Shown here piece by piece: positions 7,357-63,986 of a DNA stretch of 64,000 nt. The notes under the pieces were generated by a model that was not told the origin of the DNA, ran no database searches, and was given only the letters and a program-made list of their open reading frames with translations. The DNA comes from Moniliella sp. 'wahieum' (Eukaryota), in NCBI GenBank assembly GCA_003971905.1, contig RSEE01000125.1:1-64000 (forward strand), in the 5' to 3' direction. The first letter of the stretch is position 1, and every line of letters begins with the position of its first letter. The position numbers were made by a program, and so were the translations under genes.

Positions 7357-7977
7357 ATGGCAACTGTGCAGACGATTCCCAAGGAGGCCGCCGCGGTGGC
7401 TGCGCCCAAGGGGGCGGTGCTGCTGTTTGGCAAGTACGATGTGCAGGAAGTGGAGGTGAAAGACTTGTCGCTGCAGGACTACATTGCGCTGCGGAACGCG
7501 GTCTATGTCCCGCACACGGCCGGGCGGTACGCGTCCAAGGCGTTCAAGAAGGCGTCGATGCCGATTGTAGAGCGGCTGGTGGATGCACTGATGATGAATG
7601 GGAGGAACAATGGCAAGAAGATCATGGCCGTTCGCATTGTGGCGCACGCGTTTGAGATCATCTCGCTCTTGACGGACCAGAACCCGATCCAAGTGTTGGT
7701 GGATGCGGTGATCAACACGGGGCCCAGGGAAGACTCGACGCGGATCGGGTCGGGGGGTACAGTGCGGCGGCAAGCGGTGGACGTGTCGCCGCTGCGGAGG
7801 GTCAACCAAGCCATCTCGCTCTTGACCATTGGCACACGCGAATCCGCGTTCCGCAATGTCAAATCCATCTCGGAATGCCTGGCCGATGAGCTGATCAACG
7901 CCGCCAAGGGCTCCTCCAACTCGTACGCCATCAAGAAGAAGGACGAGCTGGAGCGGGTGGCCAAGAGCAACCGGTGA
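7357..7977 (+). CDS. RPS5: 40S ribosomal protein S5 (uS7)
   Basis: [66 protein letters not shown] and a [14 protein letters not shown] end. Probable 5'UTR intron GTGAGA(7215)..ACTAAC..CAG ends just before the ATG. Confidence 0.97.
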
Positions 7978-37174: not shown

Positions 37175-38839
37175 ATGAGCGCCTCGCCAGTGCGCACCGA
37201 AGCGGCAGAGCGCGAACGGCAATTAGCCGAGACGCTGCGTGCGCGCCGTCGTCGCTCTTCCGCCGCCGAGCCACCGCCCACCGACCCTCGGTTGCGCGAA
37301 CGCTCGCCCCACCCTCCACAGCGACGCGACCGGGACCATGTGCATGAGTATGAGCATGAGCAGGAGCAGGAGCAGAGCAGAGCTTGACAGGGAACGAACT
37401 CGCGACCGCAACCCCGACCACACTCGAAAGCGAGACCACATGCGGGACCGTGAAAAGGACAGGGACAAGGAAAGCGACCGCGACCGCGACCGCGAACGAG
37501 ACCGTGACCGCGACCGTGACCGCGAACGCGACCGCGAACGTGATGGGAACCGGGACTGGGATGCTCGTCGGCGCGGACGGAACGAGCGGGAGAGTCGGGC
37601 GTCGCGTGACTATCGTGACCGTGACCGCGAACGTGACCGGGAGCGTGACCGGGGTACGAGGGGGAGAAGGAGCGGGAGCGGGCGCGGGAGAGGAGAGTGC
37701 GTGCCGAGCCCGTTGCGCAGTGGCGTCCGCAGCACATTTACCAACATGAGCCGGACCAGGACACGTTGGACCGTACGGTGTTTGTTGCGTCGCTGAGCCA
37801 GACCGTGTCGACGCACACGTTGGGCCAGTTTATGGCGCTCAACCTGGGCATGGAGGAGGTGGTGGATGCGCACATTGTCATGGACAAGGTCACGCGCCGT
37901 CCCAAGGGCGTGGGGTACGTTACGCTCGCCACGCGGCAGGGAGCACACGTGCGCTGCAGCTCACTGGCCATGTATTGTACGGCATTCCGGTGCAGGTGTC
38001 GCCTGTTTCGTTCCTTCCCTCCCACGCGAGTGGGGAGGCTGCTGGCGCAGGCGCCGGAGGCGGAGGGCGGAGGCGGTGCCGGCGTCGGGGCCGGCTCGAC
38101 GGGCGGGGAGAACCCCGAGGCACGGCTGTATGTGGGCAGTTTGAACTTCAACCTGGATGCGCCGGCGGTCAAATCTGTCTTTTCCCGCTTTTGGACCGGT
38201 GGAGTATGTGGACCTGCACCGGGAAGTGACGGGCAAGTCCAAAGGGTTTGCCTTTGTGCAATTTGTCGAGCCGGCAGACGCCCAAGCCGCCCGCCAGCGC
38301 CTCAATGGCGTCGAGATTATGGGACGGCCGATCCGGGTGGGGCACGTCAAGCCCCGAGCCATGGCCAGTTCCGCTCCCGTCTCGCGCCCAGGCCCAGCCG
38401 ACAGCATGGAACCCACCGCGCCTTCCTACCTGGACGAAGGGGTGGCGGGCGTGGACGCCGATGCACGTGCGACGTTAATGCAGACCTCATGTACCGCGGT
38501 ACGGCGCGTCAGCCGGCCGCCGCTGCCGTGCAGGCCATCCCGCCGCCGCCACCGTCGACGGCGGTCAAGCTGGCCAACATGTTTGATCCGGCCGAGGAGA
38601 GCGATCCGCACTGGGCGCGCGACATGGCGAGCGAGGTGGAGGAAGAGTGTGCGGCGCAGTACGGGCCCGTGGCGCGCATCTGGCTCGACGAGCAATCCCA
38701 GGGCGACATTTACGTGCGTTTCCGCGACCCGGGCGCGGCGCAGCGCGCGGTACAGGCACTGCATGGGCGCCACTTCAACGGCCGCGCCATCCAGGCCCAC
38801 TCCATCCCGGAAGCCATCTTTGCGGCCAAGGTGGCGTAG
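37175..38839 (+). CDS. RBM39/CAPER (Rsd1/PAD-1)-like splicing factor: RD/RE-rich N-terminus, two RRMs and a C-terminal UHM
   Basis: RTVFVASL..VVDAHIVMDKVTRRPKGVGYV; RLYVGSLNFNL..FGPVEYVDLH..KSKGFAFVQF; LANMFDPAEE..EVEEEC..YG.V..GDIYVRF..LHGRHFNGRAI. Confidence 0.9.
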
Positions 38840-39149
38840 CGCTGGGCATGTGGCCGCACCGAGCGACAAAATGGAGAGATGCGATGTGCTTGCAGTTGGT
38901 TTGGCGGCACAGCTGCTCGTATAGGTCTCGTATCCGTTAGCGTCTGAATAGAATTGGGAATGGGGAATCAAAAACGTGGATTGGATTAATTACGGTGTTC
39001 CTGGACCTCCACCAAGCGGCCCCAAAAAATCCTGCAAATTATATAAGCCCTCGTCCTCTGCGGTCTGTCGGCGCGAAGATTTTGAGCCCCACCGCCACCG
39101 CCACTGCGACTGCCGCCGCGACCGCCGCTTCCTGTCTGCTGGCCTGCGC

Positions 39150-42100
39150 ATGTCCCTCCGTCGTGCGCTCATCGCCCGAGTCAGCCAGATGGACGCCAGC
39201 GTGACCCTTGTGCCTGGCGCGGTAGCCGACGGGGCGTGGGGGCTACCTTCGGTGCTCGTCTGCGCCAACCAATCGCGCGTGCTGCTCGCCGCGCCCGAGG
39301 GCACGACCCGCCGTGCGCTCGACAAGCGTCTCGGTCTGCCCATTCCCACGCTGACACCTACGAATGCGCCGCCGAGCTCGAGCGCGGTGGTGCTCCTTCC
39401 TGCTGCTACGGCTGCTGCGGCCGGGGGTCTGCACGGCACGTTGATGAGCATTGCGGATGGTGCGCGGGCGCGGGTGGAGCAGTTGCCCGCGAAACTGACG
39501 CAGGGCAAGCACGTCCCTCCGCTCCAACTCATTGGTCCGACCAATACACGTCATATCGTTGCGCTCGCGCGCGCGTTCAGTCGGCGCGACGGGTTTGGGC
39601 TCGATGTGGCCGAGGTGACCAGCGAGACGCACAACGTCGCCACGCCCGTGCACCAGGACCCGTCATTGTCCATCTACGCCCTGCCCATCAGCCTTGCCAC
39701 CTCGAGCGAGCGGCCGAGTAAAAAGCGTCGCCCGTCACCGGACCCGAGCTGCCGCCCGACTACCTGCACAAAGTGATCGCAACCATGTTCAATGCGTCTG
39801 GTCTGCCCGGCGGGCGCGCCGAGGACGCCGATCCGGCCCAGCTCGGCCCTTCGCGCAACTACCTTACCCGCCCGTTGCCCTTGCCCGTTGCGCCGGTCCC
39901 ACTGTCCCTGCCTTCGCCGCACGTAGGGTTCGGGCCCGACGGGGCGAACGCAACGTCGCTTCCGCCCGAGGTGGTGGTGTATGCAATTGAAACGGCACCT
40001 ACCATGCCGAAAATTGACCAGGCGCGCCGGCGGCATTTGGATGTCCGCGCGGCCCGCACATGCGCGGCTTGCGCGACGGAACGCCCGTCCACATTTCTCG
40101 CCCGGTCGGGTGGGTAGTGCCCGACCTGAGCGCGGGAGAGGCGCTGCCGACATGGGAGGAAGGTATGTCGCTCCCGTCCGAGCCGAGGCAACGGCAGCTG
40201 TTGCTGCAAGCTCGTTGGATGAGTGTCGTGGAGGCCAACCCGCCCGGCCGGCAGGGCAGGGCAGTACAAGCGCTCAAGAAGGCCGAGGCGGCCTTGTCCA
40301 AGGCCAAGGCAGCGAAAGTTGTGCCGGGCAAAGAGGAGGCGCATGCGACGCAGCTGCAAGAGCTCGAGACCCGCTTGGCCCATGCCCGCGAAGCGCATGC
40401 GCGGTACGAAGAGGTGGTCAGTGTCCCGCTCGAAGAGGTGACGTTGACCGCGGACCTGGTCACCCAGTCCCCGCTTCCGGGCGGAGCGATGGTGCAGGTG
40501 TACCTACCGTCTGAATCCTATGTCGAGCCCTTTCTCGCCGAGGCGCCCAAACTGTTTGCGCGCTACCCCACCCAAGCCACGCTGCGCGCCGTGCTGCATA
40601 TTGTTCCTCCGGCGGTATGGGAAGACGAGCGGTACCAAGCGTTTGTCCAGTCGCTCGGGAGTGGCGTCGAGCACATCCTCTCCTCCCTGCGTACTGTGCC
40701 GACGAGCTGTCCTATCCCCGTGCCGCGCTCGGCTTGCACAAGGTGTCCCACCTGGACCGGGACATGTTTAGTGTTCCCCCCTATTCGCTCGAGCCGCGCA
40801 AACCACAGACACCGCAACGCCCCTGAGCGAAAGTTTGTTCCTTGCGTCTCATGCCGCCGCCAGAGGGAAGCGCGATTGTGCGTCTGTCGGACCCCGATAG
40901 CGGGGGCAAGGGGATTGCCCAGCCGAACCTGCAGGCGCCGCTGCGCTTCCCCCGACGACAAGTTTATGCAGAACGCCGATGAGGAGGTGTTCTATTCGTT
41001 TGAGCGCGAGATGCTAGCGTCGGGCTACGTGGAAGGAGGCCGGAAGAGCAAGCGGCAGATGCGTGCCGAGGGCAAGGTGGAAGCGTGGTACGAGTACAAG
41101 AAGCTTTCGGACGAGGTGCGGGCCGATGTGGCGACGCGCCTCGCGCCTCGGACCAAGAAGGAGTGGGAGGAGATTGTGGTGACCCCGCTGGGTACGGGCT
41201 CGGCGTTGCCCAGTCGGGACCGCAACGTGTCCAGCACGCTGGTCGAGTACGACCATCGGCCGTCGGGCACGCAGGGCACAGCGGCGTATGGCACGATGCT
41301 GATGGACTGTGGCGAGTCGACGCTGGGCCAGCTGTGCCGGCGTATGGCGCGGAGCGGGCAGGAAAGTGCTACGCGATCTGCGGCTGCTGTTTATCTCGCA
41401 CAAGCATGCGGACCATCTGCTGGGTGTGTTCCGTCTATTGGCAGCACGGGCGGCGGTACGTTAACCTTTGGGTGCGATCTTGGGTGCGGTGCGTTTGGAC
41501 TGATTGATTGACTGGTATTTTTTGTTTGCCCCCCCCCCCCCCCCCGCAGCTCAACCCCTCGTCGCCGCTCTTCCTTGTCACATGCGACGAGGTGTACGGT
41601 GCGATCAAGGAGTGGGACCAGATGGAGTCGCTCGGGCTCTACACGTCCTCCAAGGGCGGGGTGTACTATGTGCCGGCGCAGTCGATCCGCCGCACTGCGT
41701 TGGAGTTGGACGGTACGTTGCTCGTGCCCCTGGCGCCCGCCCAGGCCTACCTCCCACAGAACCAACAGGTAGCCAGCTACGCGGGCTATTGGCATAGCCA
41801 CTCCAAGTTTGCCAAGCCCGAGCAGGTCGAGGACCGGGTGCGCCAGCTGGCCGAGTACGGGCTCAAGGTGGACACGGTGCCAGTCAATCACCGGTGCTTG
41901 CATGCGTATGGCGCTGTGGTCACGCACACCTCGCAGCCGTACGGGCAGTGGGGCTGGCGTATTCCGGCGACACGATCCCGTCCTCGGCGCTGGCCAACGC
42001 GGCGCGGCAGGCGCGGGTGGACGTGATGCTGCACGAGGCGACAATGGGCGACGACATGGTGGAAGATGCGTTTGTCAAGCGGCACTCGACGATGAACCAA

Positions 42101-42405
42101 GCGCTGGGCGTCGTCGCTGCCTCTGGCGCACCGCTGGCGATCCTGACGCACTTTAGCCAGCGCTACCCCAAGCTGCCCAAGCTGGGCAGCGTGGCAGAGA
42201 ACGGGGCGGCGGTGGTGCTGAGCTTCGACATGATGCGGCTGCGCTTGTCGGAGGCGTGGAAGTTTGGCTACTTTATGCCCGCCCTCGAGATGCTCTACCC
42301 GCCGACATGGAGGCGAGCAGCATGGACGACGCGTCGCTGGCGTCGCTGGCGTCGCAGCCGTCGCGGCCTTCGCAGCCGTCACGGCCGTCGCAACCGTCGC
42401 GGCCG
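39150..42405 (+). CDS. TRZ1: tRNase Z long form (ELAC2); true stop unclear (see findings)
   Basis: APEGTTR, GGLHGTLMSIAD, PLGTGSALPSRDRNVSSTL, MDCGESTLGQL, SHKHADHLLG, VPVNH, AYSGDT, LHEAT, HST and LTHFSQRYPK. Intron 41456(GTACGT)-41549(CAG). Confidence 0.92.
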
Positions 42406-42773
42406 ATGGGCGACTGGACGTACTTTGTCTGGCAGCTGACGCGGCGGGGCGAGGGGGCGCGGGCGCGCTGCCGGCGCTGACGGACATGGTGGAGCAGGCG
42501 CTGGTGCGGCTGTATGGGCAGGCGGGCGGTGCGATTGGCGTGGCGGCGGTGCACGTGGCGGCGGAGCCGGACGGGGTGCGGGGCGTGCTGCGCGCGGCGG
42601 CGGGCGAGGCGGCCAAGGTGGCGGCCGCGCTGGCCGCGGCGCACGTCGACGGCTTCCGCCGGCGGTGGTGGCGTGCGCCCTCGGCCGAGGCCGTGTGGCG
42701 CCGCGCGGGCGGCACAGGCGCCGTGCCCGACTGGGTCGCCGCCGAGGCACAGGCCCTGCGCCAGATGGAATGA
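42406..42773 (+). CDS. POP8: RNase P/MRP subunit Pop8-like (Rpp14/Pop5 fold); one frameshift near 42450
   Basis: MGDWTYFVWQL...LTDMVEQALVRLYGQAG..VAAVHV...GVLRA..KVAAAL matches the recalled yeast Pop8 pattern (WQYFKL..LNNALKRSYGIFG..FLHV..AYIRV). Confidence 0.7.
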
Positions 42774-42901
42774 AAATCACATGTGATGCCATGTCACATC
42801 TCACATGCGCTCGTGCAGACAGGCAGGCAGGCAGCAGCCCACCCATACACCCCACAGGCTAACGCTAACGCTGGCCATATACACCCCCCCGCAACAAAAA
42901 G

Positions 42902-42993
42902 TGCGGCCGTCGGGAATCGAACCCGAGACTTCAGCTGCGCCCGGCGGGGGGCCCACGTGGAAGGCTGAAATTCTACCACTAAACTACAGCCGC
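42902..42993 (-). tRNA. tRNA-Gly(TCC) with 21-nt intron
   Basis: Reverse complement GCGGCTGTAGTTTAGTGGTAGAATT-TCAGC-CT-TCC-A-[CGTGGGCCCCCCGCCGGGCGC]-A-GCTGA-AGTCTCGGGTTCGATTCCCGACGGCCGCA, then a T-run terminator. Confidence 0.93.
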
Positions 42994-43203
42994 GCTGCTG
43001 CGCGCCCCGCACCCCCGCACGGCGGCTGAGCCACGCGGGAGGCAGGCGGCGGCTTAGGTCAGCACCCCCGTGCGCTCGGGCGGGGCGGTGGCGGGCGTGG
43101 TGGGGCGCAGGCACTGGCCCAGTGTGCGTCTGCCGCTGCTTGGCGGGCGGAGGCTGCTGTCCTGCCTCAGCCCCAGCCCCAGCGCCCCCCACCACCACCC
43201 GCC

Positions 43204-44753
43204 ATGTTCAAGTCGCTCGGCAAGATGATGGGCGCGTCGTCCAAGAAGGCACGCGCCAAGGACGACCCCGCCAACGCCCCGCCCTCCAGTGCCGCCCTCG
43301 CCGCCCAGGCGTTCACCGACGTGTCCTCGGCCTCTGCCGCTGCCTCGGCCGCCGCCCCGACGCCTGGGCCGCCCAGCCGCCGCCTCCTCCGCCCCCTTCC
43401 ACAGCCAGCCCCCGTCCCAGCCCCAGTCCCAGCCCCCGCCCCGCCCCCCCCCAGTCCGCCTCCCACCCCCACCACTCCCACTCCCACTCCCACTCCCACT
43501 CCCACTCCCACTCCCACTCGCACACCCCTGCCCCCATCCCCGCCCCGCCCGCCCGCGCGTCCCAGGGCAAGATCGACAAGCGCGCCGGCCTGAGCCGACA
43601 CGAGAGCCCGCTCCCGTCGCCCACCGAGGGCGGCATGCCGTCCAACAGCCCCCTGAGTCCGATGGCCAATGGCTACGATGCGTCATCGTCCACCTCGGCG
43701 TCGCAGCTGGTGCCTGCGCGCGAAGCCGGCGCGGCGGTGCGCACGTTTGACATTGACGATATGATTGCGCGTCTGATTGAGGCTGGGTACGTGGGCGGCA
43801 AATTCCCAAGCCGGCGCTCAAGAACAATGAGATTGTTGCGGTGTGCCAAGCGGCGCGCGAAGTGTTCTTGTCCCAGCCGACGTTGATTGAGCTCAGTCCG
43901 CCAGTCAAAATTGTCGGCGACACGCATGGGCAGTACCAGGACCTGCTGCGCATGTTCTCCATGTGTGGCTTCCCCCCCAACAGCAACTACCTCTTCTTGG
44001 GCGACTATGTCGACCGCGGCAAGCAGAGTCTCGAGACGATCCTGCTGCTCTTGTGCTACAAGATCAAGTACCCAGAAAACTTTTTCCTCCTGCGTGGGAA
44101 CCATGAATGCGCCAATGTCACCCGTGGTACGTGAGCCTGTCGTCCTCCTTCCCCGCGGATGCTCGTGTTACTTCTTCTTTTTTTTGCTAACCCTGCGCAT
44201 CCAGTCTACGGCTTTTACGACGAGTGCAAGCGCCGCGTCAACATCAAGATCTGGAAGACGTTTATCGATGTGTTCACACGCTTCCCATTGCGGCCGTGGT
44301 GGCGTCGAAAATTTTCTGTGTGCATGGCGGCCTGTCGCCGTCGTTGGCCGACATGGACGATATCCGGCGGATTGAGCGGCCGACGGACGTGCCGGACTAT
44401 GGGTTGCTGAATGACCTGCTCTGGTCCGATCCTTCGGACACGGCGTTGGATTGGGAGGACAATGAGCGGGGCGTGTCGTACTGTTTTGGCAAGTCGGTCA
44501 TTGGTCAGTTCCTGGGCCAATACGACTTTGACTTGATCTGTCGCGCGCACATGGTGGTAGAAGACGGGTACGAATTTTGGAACGAACGGACACTGGTTAC
44601 CATCTTCTCGGCGCCCAACTACTGTGGCGAATTCGACAACTTTGGCGCGGTGATGATGTGTCGGAGGATCTGCTGTGTGCATTTGAGTTGCTCAAACCGC
44701 TCGACTCGGCCGCACTCAAAAAGGAGATGGCCAAGACGCGCAGGAAAAAGTGA
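43204..44753 (+). CDS. PPZ1: Ser/Thr protein phosphatase, PPZ type (PP1-like) with low-complexity N-terminus
   Basis: [87 protein letters not shown] and [15 protein letters not shown]. Intron 44127-44204. GTGAGT at ~44750 could start a further intron. Confidence 0.88.
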
Positions 44754-45559
44754 GTGCGAGCCCAGCGCCGGCCCGCACGCGCATGCGCATGCGCATGCGC
44801 ATGCGCGTTCGTTCGCGGGCGCAAGAGAGCGGAGCGTACGTGGGCCGGGCCGAGGGGTGGTGGGACGTGCCTGGCCGCCCCCGCACCCTGGGGAGCTGGC
44901 TCCCAGGGGTTACGTGCCTGCTCTTTTCTTTTCTGTCCTGCTCTGCTCTGCCCTGTTCTGCCCTGCCCTGCCCTGTCCTGCTCTGCCCTGCTCTGCTCTG
45001 CTCTCTTCTTGACTCTGGTCGCGCCGCTTTGGATTGTTGGCGATGGTTTGCTATAGTGCGAGTGGACGTGTGGAGGGCGAGCGGACGGACGATGGTGGTC
45101 GACTGTGTGCGTGCGTGTGTTTGTTTGTTGCGCCTCTACCCCCCCCGGCATTTGAGAGTGCACTCGAATCTGGGCGCGACACGCTGCGCCTGGGAGACGT
45201 GCTGTTCATGTATGATTTTGTGTTGCGATTGCATTCGTTTGAGACGTGGCTGGGGCGTGGGGGGCGGTGGGCAAGGACAGGAACGTATAAGCGTAACGGC
45301 CCCGCACGCCTGCCGCGCCAATTGAATCTCGACTAGAAATGAAGGCCCAGCGCACCCGACCCAGTCGGTCGGCAGCCAGCAATGCGCAGCACATAGCCTA
45401 CCAGCTTTACCCCAGACGCCCTGGCGCATTTCGCAGCCGCCGAGCAGATGCCGTAATCCCAGCGGAACACCCCGGGCGGAATGGCCAGCGGCGGCGGCCG
45501 CGGCCGTGTTAGTAATCGAGCCCCGTCGGCGTGCCCAGCCGCCGTCACCATCGCCGAGG

Positions 45560-47128: not shown

Positions 47129-50100
47129 TTACAGTCCCATGCGCTGCAGCAATGTACTCAGCCTGTTCCGCGCGACACAATCAGGTCAGTCAGTACTTTG
47201 GCCTGGGGGGGAGGCAAACAAAAGCAAAACAACTAAACGAAAACAAAACAAAACAAGCACAACAACACAAGTAGCGGCGGGGAAAGCAACGTACGTAGCC
47301 ATACTCAGCGGTTTTGCCATGTACCCATCTGCGCCCGCATGGAACGCAGCGCGTACGTCGTCCTCGGTCGAGCGGCCGGTCAAGGCGACCATCTTGATGC
47401 GATCTCGTGCGGGGGCGGGGCACCGCGCCTTGCTTCTTCCCACCGGCGGATCTGGCTCATCGCGCCCATCCCATCCAACACGGGCATGGTCAGGTCCATC
47501 AAAATCAAATCAAAGTATCCCTCGCCTTGGGTCGCCACCCGTCGTACCGCCTCCACGCCGTTGTTGGCGTCTTCCACACTGGCTTGCGGCGCCTGAGGGT
47601 CGAGTCGAGTCGAGTCGGTTTGATCAGACGAGGGTAGGATAGGTTATGTGTCAGTGCCCGTCGAGCAGAAAGAGCATAGGACGTACCAGTTTGGCCAGGT
47701 AGGCGCGGATGATGCGTCGGTTGATCTGGTTATCGTCGACGCTCAGCACACGGAACGCGCGGCGTCCCGCGCTGGCAGGCGGGGAAGAAGGCAAGACGGA
47801 TTTAAGAATGGCGCCATCGCCCACTTGGAGCGTTGCTGCAGGATCTTCGCGCGGGGTAGGATGTTTGTGCACGCGCGGCTCGTGGTAGGTGATGCTGCGT
47901 GCCATGACAGGGCGCGAAGGGTGCTTGCCATCCAGGAGCACATGGCCCGGGCGCATCTTGTCCTCGGCCGAGTGACGACGGATGAGCGAGGCGTGGGCGC
48001 CGCTAGGTGCTGGCGGGGTCAGGTGCACTCTCCCGCCCGCGCCTGCCGAGGCCGAGGCCGAGTGCGCGCCCGCCAGGTCGGCCAGACGCGGCGTCAACTC
48101 TTCTTCCTCAGGGATCATCATGGGGTGCTGGGCCCTTCGTTCAGGCCGCGGGGCAAAGTAGTCGCCTCCGCGTTCCGCGCGCTCATCCAGCGGCGTCAAC
48201 GGTAACGTCCTCCCTCCGCTGCTGGGGTCAAGTCGGACGCCACTGCATTCAGTGCAACCTCCATCGCATCCTGTAGCTTCTTAGGTCCAGCCGGCTTGAA
48301 CAGGCTGCTCATCACGCCCCCCAACGCAGCATACTGTTCCTGCACCGCCGACAACTCTGTCGAGCCGCGCGCCGCAGTGAGAAACACGACAGGCGGCAAG
48401 TAGGACAGACGGCCGTGGTGGCGGCGCTGGATCAAGGCACGCAGCAAGCCCAAGTCCTCATTGACCAACCAATGTCCCCCTGGGAGGTGGGCAGCGCACG
48501 CTCCCTGGGCTGGGAGTGCGTGTCGGGCTCAGGGTCAGGGTCAGGGTCAGGGTCAGGGTCAGGGTACGGATCCGGGTCCGGAGCCAGCGCAAAGCCCACC
48601 ACCCACCGAGGTAGTTGAGGAACACTTCCTTCAACGCCTGCGCGCCGCGGGACGGGCCAAAGCCAAGCAAGCTGACGGACAGGCGGCCATTGACACGTAG
48701 TGTGCGGCGGGGTACGGTGGGTGGCGCAGGTCGTTCGAGCTCGGCAGTGACCTTGATCTCGGTGCCTTCGCCCTCGGTGGACCAAACATCGATCTTGCCA
48801 TTGACCGCGGGCGACTGGACAATCGAGTTGACGATGGACAGGCCCAATCCGGTCCCGGTGCCCAGTGCGTTTTCTTGGGTAAACGGGTAGGGTGGAACAG
48901 TTGTTCTTCCAAAAAATGACGCGAGATGCCTCGGCCCGTATCCGTGACGCCCAACTCGACCACGACGCCATGCTCGTTGGACGACAACTCGCGCAAGGAA
49001 ACATGCACAAAGCCCGAAGGGGTGAACTTGAGCGAGTTGCCAATCAAGTTCATCAGCACACGACGAATGCCGCCCGCGTCGCACAACAAGTTCCACCCTT
49101 CTTCTCGGAACGAGACATCAATCACCACCTCCACGTCCGCCATTGGCATCTTGGCCGACGGCAGCGAACTGCTCGTGGTGGGATCGGGAGGGGCATAAAA
49201 CGATCCAATCCCACTCGCGTTGCCCCGTTCCAACGACTTGGCTACCTGTCCAATCCACGACGACTCGCACACCTCTTGTACCAGCTTGACCAGGTCCGCC
49301 GGCGCCTTGCTCCCCTCGCCGGCACGCGAACCGGAGAGCTTGGTAAAGTCGAGGACGTGATTGACGAGTTCCAACAGCGACTTGCCGCATGCTTCAATTG
49401 TTTCCAAGTACGAAGTTTGGGGACCATTGAGCACGGTGGATTTGAGCAAGTCCGAGGCGGCGAGGATGCCATGGAGCGGGGTCCTGAGCTCATGCGACAT
49501 GTTGGAGATAAAGTGCGACTTGGCCTTGTCGGCCAAGATGATATCTTTGCGCAGCACGGCCGACAAGATGATCATGCCCATGGCGCGGAGGTACTGGAGC
49601 CCAATCCCATGCAGTTCCTCCAGCGGCAGCGTCTTGTTGGACGCAAACGAGTAGACAATCAGCAGGGCGAACGGTTGGCCATTCAGACCAAAAATGGGCA
49701 CCATCAGTACCCATCCAATCTTCTCGCTGGGAAGCAGGCGGTGCAGCGCGCTGGGCATGTAGCGGTAGTAGCGTCCATTGGGATGCGTGCGCAAAAACTG
49801 CGCAATCTGCACATGGTCCGACAAGGGTACCGGTTCGGTCCGGGTCGAAGGGATGGGCCCTTGTTCACTGCTGCCCAACGCCACCATGGGCGGGACCAAC
49901 CGACTTTTCATCTCGGGTGCCGACGCCGTCGTGCCACTGTCATCCGCCGTGCCGCTACCCGAAACAACGGAAGGGGTGGCAGAGGAGAACGAGGGCGGAG
50001 CCGGCGTCCCGGTCCCGGCCCCCGTCCCGGTCCCCGTCCCGGTCCCGCCCGTCGGTTGGGACGGCGACGCAGGGAAGAAGACTTTGGAAGTCGGATCGGC

Positions 50101-52499
50101 CTCGTCCGACAGGGCTTCAATCACTTCAAAGTGCGACAGGTCAAACAGTACTGAGCCATTGGCTTGGAGTGCAACGCGTTGCGACTCGGCGGCCATAGTA
50201 AAGATGCGTCTGGCGCCGCTCGCATCGTCCTTGAGTCCTGAATCGGCATCGAGGTCCATCTCGAGACAGACGCGCGTAAACTGCTCGATGGAATGTTGGA
50301 TCCGGTCGCGCGCAGCAAAGTTGATTCCATCCCGTACCAACTCCATCTCCCGCATCACGATCCGGGCAAACTCGCGCAAAATGTGTCGTTGGCGCGGGGA
50401 GAAAGTTTCGCGCGGGTGGGGATCCAGGACACAAATCGTACCAATGTTGTGGCCATCCGACGTGCGCAGCGGTGCGCCAGCATAAAAGCGTACCAGTGGG
50501 CCAGTTTGCACTGCTGGGTTGCAACAAAACCGCCAATCGGCCAGCGCATCCAGCACCACCATCGGTTCGTCCGAGTCTTGCAGAATCGCATGCGCACAGA
50601 ACGAACGGTCGCGCGAATCAAACGGCATGGGAGCCGGAGCGCGCGGGTCGTGCATCCCCCCAGCGGCGGTACGAACACTGATGCCGTCCCGGGATACGAG
50701 CGCAATGATCACCGTCTGCACGCTGAGCGACAGTTTGGCCACATGCGCCATCCGATGAAAGTTGGGTGCATTGGCCCATTCGCCCGCGCTGCTCGGATCG
50801 CCATACCGATCCAGCGCCGCTGAGCGCGCCGCTTCGGTCGGTGGCAACGGTGCCAGCAGGTAGCCCAATTGAGCAAAGGAGCGTTCCATCATCTCCCCTT
50901 CGAACGGCAGCAAGAGCCTCGGGGGGGCCGCGGAGGGGTGCGCCAGCGGCCCGCCAGGCCGGCTGGTCGTGGGCAGGACAACCAAGTCCGAGTCTGGAGC
51001 GTCGTCCGAAATACAAAAGCATGCGAGGTGGCATGAAAGCCGGCACCCTGCGCGGCCTCTTTACCTGCGCCCGTTACCGAAACTGCATCAGCCAAACACT
51101 TTGCTTGCCACTCAAGTGCTCGCGCGGGTGGGAGACCCCATCTCGTTCCAGGGAAGTGCGCCGTGCCGCACGACGGAGGTGGTCCACCACCACGGCCGAG
51201 CCAGCTAGATCGCTCCGGGACGGAATCGAGGCCACCGACTCGTCCGACCCCGGATGGGACCTGGGGCTGCGGCTGGGGCTGGTCGGCCTAGCGGATCCAG
51301 GGACGCCCAAGAGCGAGGGCTGCGGGGCTGCGGGGGCTGCGTAAGTTGCAGCGGTGTAGGTTTCGGGCGGATGGGCGAGGAGGCATCTGGCGGGGCGGCG
51401 GCTGCAACCTGGTATCCAGCCCGACGCTGCCGCTGCCTGCCCCCGTGGGCCGGCACTGGCCGAGTGAGGCACCGTGTTGCTGGTCCCCTGGATAGGCGAG
51501 GATCGAAGAGCCTGGGTAGGGACCAGCGGCGCACTGCCGCCCTTGCCGCTCGTTCCCCGGCGTGGTAGTGCATCTTCTTTCTCGGTCGGGGCAAAGAGGA
51601 GAGGCTTGGGGTCAGGGAGGTAGGTGGAGACGTCCCTTTCGGGGGCAGGCGGACGTGAAAGTGTACTGGCCGATTCCGGGGTGTAATTCAGACTGAGGGG
51701 CACTGTGCAGTGTGGGTGTGAGTGGGTAAGTTAAGACCAGAAACGGATGAAAACCGACACACCAGCGGGCATGAGCAGAGGGGGGAAGAAAAGGAAAGGG
51801 GGGGGGGGGCAATACGTACGCGGATCTCCAGTGCGAGAAGAGGAAACGAGAGTGGTACGTTGGCCATCGTGGACGGAGGACAGGCCCGGGGGTCTTGGGG
51901 CGCGGTAGGGGTCCCATCGCCCGCGGACATAGGCGGCATGGAACGTAGTCCAATCGTACGCTCCCTCGTGGCACGTGAGCGCAGAGCGGGCAGCGGCGGG
52001 GGCGGGGTGGGGGAGGCGGCGCTGGGCGGGGAGTGGGGAACAGCTGCCACGGCTGATATGGCGAGCGGGGCGAGAGGAGTTGGATGGGGACACATGTCCT
52101 CTCCCTCGGGGGGAGGGGAGCGCCCTGGCCAATGGCGGGGAGGGAGGGCAGGTCATCGACGCTGTCCTCTTCGGACGGCTCGGGGTCGCTGGGGGTGTCC
52201 TGGCGCATAGCACTGGCCGAGGGGGCGGCGACACTGCTGCTGAAGCTGGAGCGGGAGCGGAAGCTTTCGGAGCGGTGGGCGGCGTGGTAGGGCAGGACCA
52301 GGACGGAGCTGGTGTTGAGGGGGGCGGGGGGCTGCGCTTGGGGTTGTGGCGGGGGCGGGGTGAAGGCGGCGAGGGAGGCGAGGGAGGTGCTGGATGCCGA
52401 GGGCGATGCGACCGAGGCGGGGGCGGGTACGGGTGCGGATGCGGATGCGAATGCGGATGTGCGGATGCGGATGCGGATAGGGATGCAGGGGCAGGTGCG

Positions 52500-61399: not shown

Positions 61400-63986
61400 A
61401 TGGCCTCGCCCTATGAGAAGGACGATGCTAAGGACGTCATTGACGCCCACCGGTGCCTGCCCTCGGCTCGCAGCAGCCTCATACGTGCTTGATCATGAGG
61501 CTGCTTTCGGTAACATTGAGGACACCATTCGCCAAGAGATTACCGACCATCGTATAACACCCCAACCTCGACCCAGCGCTCTTGCGAGGCAGATCAGGCT
61601 TTGTCCAAGGGCGATCAAAAGGCCGAGCTTCGCCTCGAGGATGTGATTGAGGACGACTCGATTTATCCTGAGGTCCGTGCCGCCGTTAGTAATCTCGACG
61701 ACCCCACCATGAGGGCCAACACTTTCCGCGCTTGGTTCATGGGCATGATTGCCTGTACCATTCTCAGTGGTATCAACATGTACTTCGCCCCCCAAGTATG
61801 TCTTATTGTTTCGCCTAACGATGACAAACAGCAACTAACCCCGTTGTAATGGTCAGTGGCCCACAGTTACCTTCCCTTCAATTGCCGTCCAGCTTTTCGC
61901 ATACCCGATTGGTGTCGCTATGTCTAAGATCCCTACCCTCGCAACTGGCCCCTTGCCGACTGGATGAACCCGGGGCCGTTCAATATCAAGGAGCATTCGA
62001 TGATCTCCATCATGTCTACTGTCGGTGTCGGGTCTGCCTACTCGACGGACATTTTCATCACGCAGCACGCGTACTATCGCCAGCATCTTATGCTGGCTAC
62101 ATGATCCTCCTCACGCTTTCGACTCAGCTGATTGGTTTCTCTTTGCCGGTTTCTGTCGCCAGATTCTGGTCTGGCCCGCCTCAATGATTGGCCTAGTAAC
62201 CTGACCCAGACCGCTTTCTTGTTTTCCATGCACGATGGCACAAGAGCCAGGCCCGGTGTTTCCGTGGATGGTCGCGTTTCAAGATGTTTCGGTGGTGGGA
62301 TGCATCGTATTTGTGTGGGAATTTATCCCCAACTACCTCTTCACTGGTTTGGCTACCTTCTCTGGCCAGCATGGTGTGCACCCAAGAACAAGGGGTGTCA
62401 ACCTCGTGTTTGGCGGCACTGGCGGCATTGGCTTCAACTTCATTTCATTGGATTGGCTCACCATCACCTCCGGGTTGGGCTCGCCCATTTACCAACCTTG
62501 GTTCGCCATTGTCAACACTTTCACTGGCTACCTGATCATCATTTGCTTTGTAGCTCCAATCATGTGGCCACCAACACCAAGTACACGGGTTACTTCACCT
62601 TCAGCAGTTCTGCCTTGTACGACCGCTTTGGCCAGTCCTACCAGGTCGGCTACGTGGTCAATGACCGTTTTGAGTTGGACAAGGACAAGTACGACTCTTA
62701 CTCGAAAGAGTATCTGTCGGCAACCTTATCATCAGCTACTGTGTTGGTTTCGGAGCCATCACTAGGTACGTGCTGTTCTCCTCGGTGAGGTGCTCGGAAA
62801 ATGTATCACTAACCCTGCTTATTCATGTGGCTCACATCAGTACACTGCACACTGCGCTTTGTACTACTCGAAGGACATCATCCGGCAAGTCAGGCGTTCG
62901 CTCAACGAGGAACCCGACATTCATGCCCGTCTTATGTCGCGCTACCCTGAGGTTCCCACTACTGGTACGGCTTCACGTTCCTCCTCTCGTTCGCCTTAGC
63001 TGTCCCTTCGGTTTACGTGTATCACACCGACCTCCCCATCTGGCTGCTGATCGTGCCATCTTGATGAGCGCCGTCTACACCATCCCCATTGGAATCATTA
63101 CTGCTGTGACATCCAACGAAGTGGGTCTCAACGTGATCGCCGAAATGATTGTGGGTTATGCTTTGCCAGGCAAGCCCGTGGCCATGATGATTCAAGACCT
63201 TGGGTACATCTCCATGTCCCAGGCCGTCTCGTTTGTCAGTGATCTCAAGTTGGGTCATTACATGAAAGTTGCCTCCCCGTGACATGTTCTGGGCTCAGAT
63301 GGTGTCCACCTTCTGGGCATGTTTTGTGGCAAGTCGCCGTCACTGCCTTCCTCTTTGGCTCGACCCCAACCTGTGCAAGATCAACCCCCACGAGAAAGTC
63401 AGTCCTGCGCACTTTACCTGCGCTTCTCACACGTTCTACTCTGGTACGTTTCTCTCCTTTCCAACTGGCAACAATGAAAGTATCTGGCATCACTGACCCT
63501 GACAAATCGTCTTGTTCAACAGCGAGTATCATTTGGGGTCTCATTGGCCCGGCCCGCACGTTCGCAGTGGGTCAGACGTACGGTGCGTTGAACATCATGT
63601 TCTTGATTGGAGCTCTGATCCAATCCCGACGTGGCTGCTGGCTAAGAAGTACCCCAAATCGTGGGTGCGCTTGATCAACTGGCCCGTCTTCTTCTCCGCG
63701 ACGGGTATGATGCCGCCCCGCGTCGGGGATCACTTCACGTCGTGGTTTGTTGTCGGCTGGTTCTTCCAGTACTACCTCCGTCGTCACTACTTTGAATTCT
63801 GGTCGGACTACAACTACATTATCTCTTCCGGTCTCGATGCCGGCAGCGCCATCATCTCCTTCCTCATCTCGCTCTGCCTCGAGGTACCCAACACTAAAAA
63901 GCTTACCGTGGACAAGTGTTCAACGGGGACAACTTTGGTGGGGTAACAAAGTTGAGGCCAATAACTTGCAGGGCTCGCTTTCTTGA
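61400..63986 (+). CDS. OPT-family oligopeptide transporter, multi-exon and frameshifted in the assembly
   Basis: EDDSIYPEVRAAVSNLDDP..TFRAW, NPGPFNIKEH, GLNVIAEMIVGY..PGKPVA, DLKLGHYMK, IWGLIGPARTF and YNYIISSGLDAG. Introns near 61796, 62766 and 63445. Confidence 0.93.

Follow-up and report, generated by a model that had tools for sequence, protein, structure and literature searches.

We analyzed a 64,000-nucleotide (nt) stretch of contig RSEE01000125.1 from Moniliella sp. 'wahieum' (the window in what follows), whose plus-strand segment 39150-42773 is probably a single gene coding for a long-form tRNase Z, a disordered Ser/Pro/Ala linker of ~37 residues and a Pop8-like domain of ~120 residues, an architecture that would tether tRNase Z to RNase P/MRP. 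Sequence comparisons suggest that this Trz1-Pop8 fusion is real, and apparently undescribed, in a small unannotated clade of the Ustilaginomycotina. Every tRNA is cut at one end by RNase P and at the other by tRNase Z, usually at the 5′ end first, and in the nucleus the two are regarded as separate, freely diffusing enzymes; Pop8 is common to RNase P and RNase MRP. A natural fusion between tRNase Z and an RNase P/MRP subunit would be direct genomic evidence for a possible physical coupling of the two steps and would offer a ready-made system for testing tRNA hand-over.

The tRNase Z frame and its continuation into the C-terminal domain

On the evidence of its motifs and homologs, segment 39150-42301 (+) encodes a long-form tRNase Z whose catalytic motifs are intact. 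The His motif of the C-terminal lobe (HxHxDH) is present as FISHKHADH in the frame 41303..41464, and the downstream catalytic motifs GLAYSGDT, MLHEATMGDD, KRHSTMNQ and LTHFSQRYPKLPK are all found in the frame 41798..42439. Motif names, including that of motif V in THFSQRY, follow a survey of fungal tRNases Z (PMC2942849). A 119-amino-acid (aa) piece, 41945-42301, retrieved 912 homologs at E ≤ 0.001. It is 71% identical to P0001 and 64% identical to P0002, the two predicted proteins described below, compared with at most 48% for named ribonucleases Z; the named fungal enzymes show 45 to 48% identity, with E values down to 1.8e-23. In tblastn searches, full-length relatives covered the window from 39189 to 42298. 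Because of frame breaks in the gene, Pfam scans were run on fragments; Lactamase_B_2 (PF12706) was reported on the tRNase Z fragment at E = 0.0012 and 19 bits (cut-off, 27), and PF13691 was not reported at E ≤ 1 on the N-terminal fragment.

Downstream of the tRNase Z motifs, the last plus-strand stop before the region is TGA 42231, and none occurs in any plus frame from 42232 to 42436 (205 nt). Past this stretch, the tRNase Z frame stops at TGA 42437, the frame of the linker and MGDWTYF at TGA 42478, and the third frame at TGA 42771. This agrees with a preliminary description of the sequence, which had reported that no plus frame holds a stop between FMPALEMLYP, ending at 42301, and the ATG at 42406. 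The linker frame noted there is also found: from 42292 it reads ALPADMEASSMDDASLASLASQPSRPSQPSRPSQPSRPMGDWTYF and is continuous with MGDWTYF, offset by one base from the frame of tRNase Z. The stop-free stretch by itself is unremarkable in this DNA. The plus strand of the window holds 69 stop-free stretches of at least 150 nt, at least 25 of which are longer than the 205-nt one; only 110 of 20,000 local shuffles were free of stops. As the assembly is indel-rich, the window alone is unable to decide whether the two parts are fused.

Continuity of the open reading frame (ORF) is decided by relatives, which are bare ORF calls from independent Logan assemblies on contigs of ~5 kb. P0001 (430 aa) and P0002 (360 aa), the two closest homologs of the 119-aa piece, begin within the catalytic half of tRNase Z and continue through …SFDLMRLR(L/I)S(D/E)AWKFP…LE(M/L)LY-RAD(D/E)E… into a low-complexity linker and then into a domain that aligns with that of the window, ending in …ELEDL or …AAHDL. 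P0248 and P0249, members of the P0001 cluster from two further assemblies, differ from P0001 by 5 and 8 residues and have an equally unbroken ORF. An unbroken ORF from tRNase Z's C-terminal half across the linker to where the domain ends is present in 4/4 close relatives (three assemblies yielded P0001, P0248 and P0249, and a more distant one P0002), with in-frame linkers of 36, 36, 36 and 67 residues. Between the LEMLY/LELLY junction and the domain's first strand, all four lack a Met, and P0249 is free of Met after the junction, so that a separate, AUG-started Pop8 is not possible there. Whereas Pop8 and Rpp14 are free-standing small proteins (~120 to 135 aa), in each of these relatives the domain forms the C terminus of the tRNase Z ORF. 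On these sequences, the fused frame is real in the relatives. The preliminary description had named a fusion as one option and proposed checking whether TRZ1 and Pop8 are adjacent in relatives, and that option is the one supported by all four unbroken ORFs.

In the window, tRNase Z and linker are separated by a frame break at 42296..42304 (+), where the assembly reads TAC CCG CCG and tblastn passes from frame 3 to frame 2 at 42298-42343. One base added at the CCC run 42299-42301 (or as C-G-C) yields LY[P/R]ADMEAS, the relatives having LYRADDE or LYRADEE. The low-complexity Ser/Pro/Ala linker occupies 42302..42411 (+), ~37 codons in the frame of MGDWTYF, and includes a tandem repeat with a period of 9/18 nt and 0% indels at 42332-42405 (Tandem Repeats Finder). 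In the Pop8 frame, its G+C contents at codon positions 1/2/3 are 0.65/0.68/0.91, which exceeds chance expectation and is of the coding type. The corresponding values are 0.58/0.41/0.84 for RPS5 and 0.64/0.43/0.89 for tRNase Z, both known coding stretches, and they are flat (0.52 to 0.64) in the flanks outside the gene. By contrast, the 46-codon Arg-rich tail that continues the tRNase Z frame has values of 0.68/0.91/0.65, with a peak at position 2, unlike local coding DNA.

These observations bear on the alternative that the locus comprises two separate or overlapping genes, with tRNase Z ending at TGA 42437, the Pop8-like protein starting at ATG 42406, and the ORFs of the relatives resulting from chance read-through. 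Such an arrangement agrees with the assembly as it stands, the ATG of the window sits two codons before the domain, and stop-free stretches are common in the GC-rich DNA of the window. Nevertheless, the Pop8 start codon is found in 0/4 relatives, the frame is kept in 4/4 across differing linker lengths, the phasing of the Arg-rich tail is noncoding, and the 'separate' Pop8 ORF itself requires a frame correction. That last point also qualifies the Pop8-like ORF that had been described from ATG 42406: the linker is in frame with the first strand of the domain, as stated, but the ORF stops at 42478-42480 after 24 codons, and the remaining domain, 42459-42770, lies in the third frame. The change of frame maps to a second break at 42446..42467 (+), a G-rich 8-nt repeat that lacks one base, where tblastn with P0002 passes from frame 2 to frame 1 at ~42441. 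The overlapping or bicistronic option of the preliminary description, which corresponds to the raw assembly, is thus disfavored by the phasing of the tail, and we consider two genes highly improbable.

If the locus is a single fused gene, it would be unbroken in the organism and its product made as one chain. That chain might still be a polyprotein whose linker is cut post-translationally, releasing free tRNase Z and free Pop8 and ensuring their co-expression or stoichiometry rather than their tethering. A long, disordered and poorly conserved linker of 36 to 67 residues would suit a dispensable connector. However, by eye the linkers of the relatives have no conserved cleavage motif, and the literature excerpts consulted give no such processing for these families, making a polyprotein very unlikely.

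Sequence and fold of the Pop8-like domain

The first strand of the domain (DWTYFVWQLT…) lies at 42412..42462 (+), in the linker frame, with ATG 42406 two codons upstream. It aligns with GWTYLLWEV in P0001 and DWMYFLWRL in P0002 and corresponds to strand E7-16 of the structural model presented below. The rest of the domain, 42459..42773 (+) with the stop TGA at 42771-42773, was characterized by Pfam, BLASTP, a four-row alignment (A1) and fold matches. In BLASTP, this piece of the window was 41% identical to residues 326-430 of P0001 (E = 4e-9). A hidden Markov model based on A1 found only two pieces of the domain itself among 1270 six-frame ORFs of the window.

Pop8 (PF20976) was the top Pfam family outside the metallo-β-lactamases in all three lineages, namely, the window, the P0001 group and P0002. 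Against a gathering cut-off of 27.2 bits, the domain of P0002 scored 27.1 bits (E = 4.5e-6; profile positions 1-72 of 74), the window piece lacking strand 1 scored 15.7 bits (E = 0.016), and the domain of P0001 scored 13.9 bits (E = 0.057). The second-best family was Rpp14/Pop5 (PF01900; E = 0.056), which matched the window piece 42459-42773 at E = 0.16. The nearest cluster in the ESM Atlas was labeled 'Rpp14/Pop5 family' (score, 0.91; 204/256 features), with PF01900 at 51% and PF20976 at 34%.

We built an AlphaFold2 model of the domain on alignment A1. It has a predicted local distance difference test score (pLDDT) of 76 and a predicted template modeling score of 0.71 and forms a β-α-β-β-α-β sandwich followed by C-terminal helices. 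Foldseek ranked 6agb_H first (E = 9e-5), followed by 6agb_E, 6w6v_E, 7c79_E, 6w6v_H and 6ahr_H, and then by archaeal Pop5 entries; the first six are all RNase P/MRP chains from yeast or human. Among 48,161 chains compared with VIA-align, the best matches were 2czv_D (Z 11.5), 6agb_H (Z 11.0; 116 residues aligned, root mean square deviation of 2.7) and 6ahr_H (Z 9.8), the next one reaching 7.3. Entry 2CZV contains Pyrococcus horikoshii Pop5 (PMC13462272). The Pop8 match proposed in the preliminary description holds at the level of the fold, whereas the Pfam match is borderline, at 27.1 versus 27.2 bits.

Like Pop8 (yeast, PF20976) and Rpp14 (human), which have ~120 to 140 residues and a β-α-β-β-α-β core with C-terminal helices, the tail finds its best eukaryotic structural matches in 6agb_H and 6ahr_H. 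It differs from them in being a C-terminal domain of tRNase Z, the known ones being free small proteins, in its Pfam score at or below the gathering cut-off, and in an identity to the solved chains of only 17 to 19%. Pop5 (PF01900) also shares the fold, archaeal 2czv_D being the top VIA-align match, but its sequence match to the tail is weaker than that of Pop8; eukaryotic Pop5 proteins are larger, at 163 to 173 aa (PMC13462272). Sequence and model together suggest that the tail belongs to the Pop5/Rpp14/Pop8 clan and is closest to Pop8 by sequence, short of strict Pfam membership.

A Pop5-like fold could also have been recruited by tRNase Z for its own purposes. In that case the fusion would be real, but the tail would serve RNA binding or self-association of tRNase Z, and a separate Pop8/Rpp14 gene would supply RNase P. 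Consistent with this, family membership in Pfam is borderline, and the fold is a general α-β plait common to many RNA-binding domains at Z 6-7. Free Pop8-like proteins of ~130 aa also seem to occur in Basidiomycota, to judge by an ESM Atlas cluster that has this as its commonest phylum and PF20976 on 12% of its members, which is a lead only. Archaeal Pop5 homodimerizes within (Pop5)2(Rpp30)2 (PMC13462272). On the other hand, the top three structural matches are all RNase P proteins, ~2.5 to 4 Z units above the rest, and with Pop8 as the top Pfam family in three lineages, the domain is explained by no other family. We regard a tail that serves only tRNase Z as unlikely.

Proposed role and distribution of the fusion

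If the tail is a subunit of RNase P/MRP, it would sit where free Pop8 sits in the RNase P and RNase MRP of yeast, paired with Pop5 and a single copy of Rpp1/Rpp30. A tRNase Z would then be attached to each RNase P (and MRP) particle through a flexible tether of 36 to 67 residues, and a pre-tRNA with a freshly cut 5′ leader would be released beside the enzyme that trims 3′ trailers, coupling the two cleavages by direct hand-over. The proposed hand-over is consistent with the usual order of processing, 5′ before 3′. Removal of the 5′ leader enhances the action of RNase Z (PMC8509007), and Pop5 and Pop8/Rpp14 have a common core fold, each being paired with a copy of Rpp1/Rpp30 in the RNase P of yeast and humans (PMC13462272). 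The nearest functional analog that we met may be the human mitochondrial MRPP1/MRPP2 platform, which holds on to the tRNA once RNase P has cleaved it, for presentation to ELAC2 (PMC5716156). There too, a shared protein component links 5′ and 3′ cleavage, as proposed for the fusion. In contrast, mitochondrial RNase P is protein only and its hand-over noncovalent, whereas here a subunit of RNA-based nuclear RNase P/MRP would be covalently joined to tRNase Z.

A bolder possibility, which we hold tentatively and think doubtful, is that the tRNase Z tail is the sole Pop8 of the clade, such that every RNase P/MRP particle has a built-in tRNase Z and acts as a 'both-ends' machine. If so, tRNase Z would also be delivered to the enzyme that processes pre-rRNA, and the fusion would be of the Rosetta-stone type, implying contact between nuclear RNase P and tRNase Z in other eukaryotes. 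It might also explain why Pop8 went unfound in the Basidiomycota in an inventory of 2006 (PMC1636426). For annotation, where Pop8 is 'missing' from some Basidiomycota, it may be hidden in the TRZ1 tail.

The literature contains a further hint. In a 2010 survey, the Trz1 of Malassezia globosa (MglTrz1) has 1109 aa, compared with a fungal mean of ~924 (PMC2942849). Together, this long Trz1 and the reported failure to detect Pop8 in Basidiomycota may hint at a wider occurrence of the fusion in the Ustilaginomycotina. The excerpts of the survey ascribe the variation in size to extensions and name no domain; its supplementary alignments might show the tail (PMC2942849). A description of a tRNase Z-Pop8 fusion was not found in searches of open-access papers, mostly at the level of titles and abstracts.

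Searches for further fusions returned few candidates. Among 8000 candidates scored with profile A1, the longer proteins recovered were P0001 and P0002 only, and there was no named full-length fused protein; as a capped search that relies on shared words, this is weak evidence. A metagenome contig scan with P0001 alone gave 74 pattern matches, none of which was confirmed, and a scan with A2 gave two loci (L001 and L002), which look like short-form RNase Z without a Pop8-like tail. Among the 120 homologs listed, 26 have at least 120 residues after HFSxR, and apart from P0001, P0002 and P0096, the long tails look low-complexity by eye, for instance Lys/Glu-rich in Tremellales. We scanned 15 of these 120 homologs, together with P0001 and P0002, against Pfam. 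The long tails of Tremellales, Orbilia and a lichen fungus were considered as further fusions and rejected, there being no Pop8 match among the 15.

Several points weigh against a Trz1-Pop8 fusion tied to RNase P/MRP. The assembled window does not contain the fusion, as a stop at 42437 closes its tRNase Z frame and two corrections are required inside 42290-42480, and the relatives demonstrate continuity of the ORF only, from gene calls on ~5-kb contigs. Only the window, the P0001 group and P0002, three lineages in all, were seen to have the fusion, and a Pop8 match at E ≤ 0.1 in Pfam was obtained for 0/15 other long fungal tRNases Z scanned. No match reached the Pop8 gathering score; the best was 0.1 bit short and the rest were far below. 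The domain profile A1 gave one chance match among PDB sequences (E = 1.6). With phmmer, the 104-aa window piece gave 6 matches at E ≤ 0.001 among 1.84 billion representatives, all apparently of low complexity; they look Ala/Gly-rich, with 19 stretches in one 1956-aa protein, for example, and none was used. The fold alone does not separate Pop8/Rpp14 from Pop5, and we take chains 6agb_H and 6ahr_H to be yeast Pop8 and human Rpp14, the lengths of 131 and 121 residues being in agreement. These chain identities are consistent with Pop5 and Pop8/Rpp14 being the two proteins of this fold in those enzymes (PMC13462272). Finally, a second, free POP8 may exist elsewhere in the genome.

A look-alike tail was noticed in two other ORFs, at residues ~905-1001 of P0096 and ~1003-1095 of P0251. 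It reads FQYASFELRRV…SLERSLVELNGL…VLVKVD and is Pop8-like by eye, and its tRNase Z is more distant, at 41% identity to P0002 in the catalytic part. The tail matches the Pop8-like domain in strand 1 and helix 1, by eye and in the hhalign register, ends abruptly in both ORFs, and may be a truncated exon. It was rejected as a second fusion. Pfam reported no family at E ≤ 10, BLASTP against P0002 gave no match in the tail, and the ESM Atlas gave no usable match; hhalign of A1 with A3 gave E = 0.018 at a probability of 2.5%. Its AlphaFold model has a pLDDT of 55.6, and Foldseek matched it to generic plaits, with no RNase P chain among them.

Gene model, assembly quality and neighboring features

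The whole gene, 39150-42773 (+), has one intron and would encode a protein of ~1177 residues after frame corrections. Exon 1, 39150..41455 (+), contains long-form tRNase Z of the Trz1/ELAC2 type, traced by the frame path in the ORF list and by tblastn with P0251, P0014, P0022, P0003 and P0011; it includes the FISHKHADH motif and has three nonintron frame breaks, at ~39750, ~40030 and ~41350. The 94-nt intron, 41456..41549 (+), was read from the sequence as GTACGT … poly-C … CAG, and the change from frame 2 to frame 0 across it follows from its length. The acceptor agrees with the start of P0001, which begins just past it and maps from 41547 onward in tblastn. A run of ~16 C residues (41530-41545, +) directly precedes the CAG, its length being uncertain in the assembly. 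Exon 2 carries the catalytic C-terminal part of tRNase Z at 41550..42301 (+), with the AYSGDT, HEAT, HST and THFSQRYPKLPK motifs, and ends that part with …FMPALEMLY[P]; this part has one frame break, at ~41952 in a GGGG run.

Like Trz1/ELAC2, the protein is a two-lobed long form with the same motifs and possible alternative start codons, and it differs in having an extra folded domain after the catalytic lobe. Two in-frame ATGs, at 39150 and 39189, lie 13 codons apart (MSLRRALIARVSQ-MDAS…; 39150-39191, +), and the short basic leader between them resembles a mitochondrial presequence. ELAC2 is targeted to both nucleus and mitochondria through alternative initiation (PMC3084753). If the leader works in the same way, the Pop8-like tail would enter mitochondria too.

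Comparison with relatives by tblastn and with the ORF lists places six nonintron frame changes in the gene, at ~39750, 40030, 41350, 41952, 42299 and 42446-42467. Five are a single missing base and one is an extra base, and several fall within or next to short runs of G or C. In the case of 41952, for instance, the window has TGGGGCTGG, and the QWGLAYSGDT of the relatives requires one more G. Adding five bases and removing one gives a coding sequence of 3534 nt, a multiple of three. Six frame breaks in a single gene would also be expected if the locus were a pseudogene in decay or had been wrongly joined in a poor assembly. However, unrelated neighboring genes are broken likewise: the RBM39-like RRM gene (37649-38921) is split at 37649/38145, the PPZ-like phosphatase (43205-45010) is split between frames, the HATPase_c domain of a GAF histidine kinase (48461-51060) is split at 48461/48634, and an OPT transporter (62132-63279) is distributed among three frames. 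In addition, the tRNase Z catalytic motifs are all intact, codon-position GC is coding-like throughout, and the architecture is repeated in four other assemblies. A pseudogene or mis-join is thus extremely improbable. Since neighboring genes are affected in the same way, the frame breaks are most likely assembly errors and not gene decay, and ORF-based findings in this genome call for polished sequence.

The window has a G+C content of 58.8% and a fungal style. By RPS5 (7357-7974), the closest named relative is Tilletiaria anomala, at 90% identity; the RPS5 sequences of Testicularia, Moesziomyces, Tilletia and Tilletiopsis share 81 to 83% identity with that of the window. These values suggest a placement of the organism in the Ustilaginomycotina. 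The tRNase Z/Pop8-like gene is without a close annotated relative. A scan of 42200-43000 for bacterial promoters and terminators gave no match, such models not being meaningful for a fungus. The N-terminal extension of the PPZ-like phosphatase contains a hexanucleotide CACTCC repeat (43440-43530, +) that reads (HS)n or (TP)n by frame, the frame being uncertain. A tRNA-Gly(UCC) gene lies in convergent orientation at 42901-42993 (-), 128 nt past the stop of the fusion gene. It is 92 to 93 nt long, compared with a tRNA model of 71 positions, and probably contains an intron; its position next to a tRNA-processing gene is probably a coincidence.

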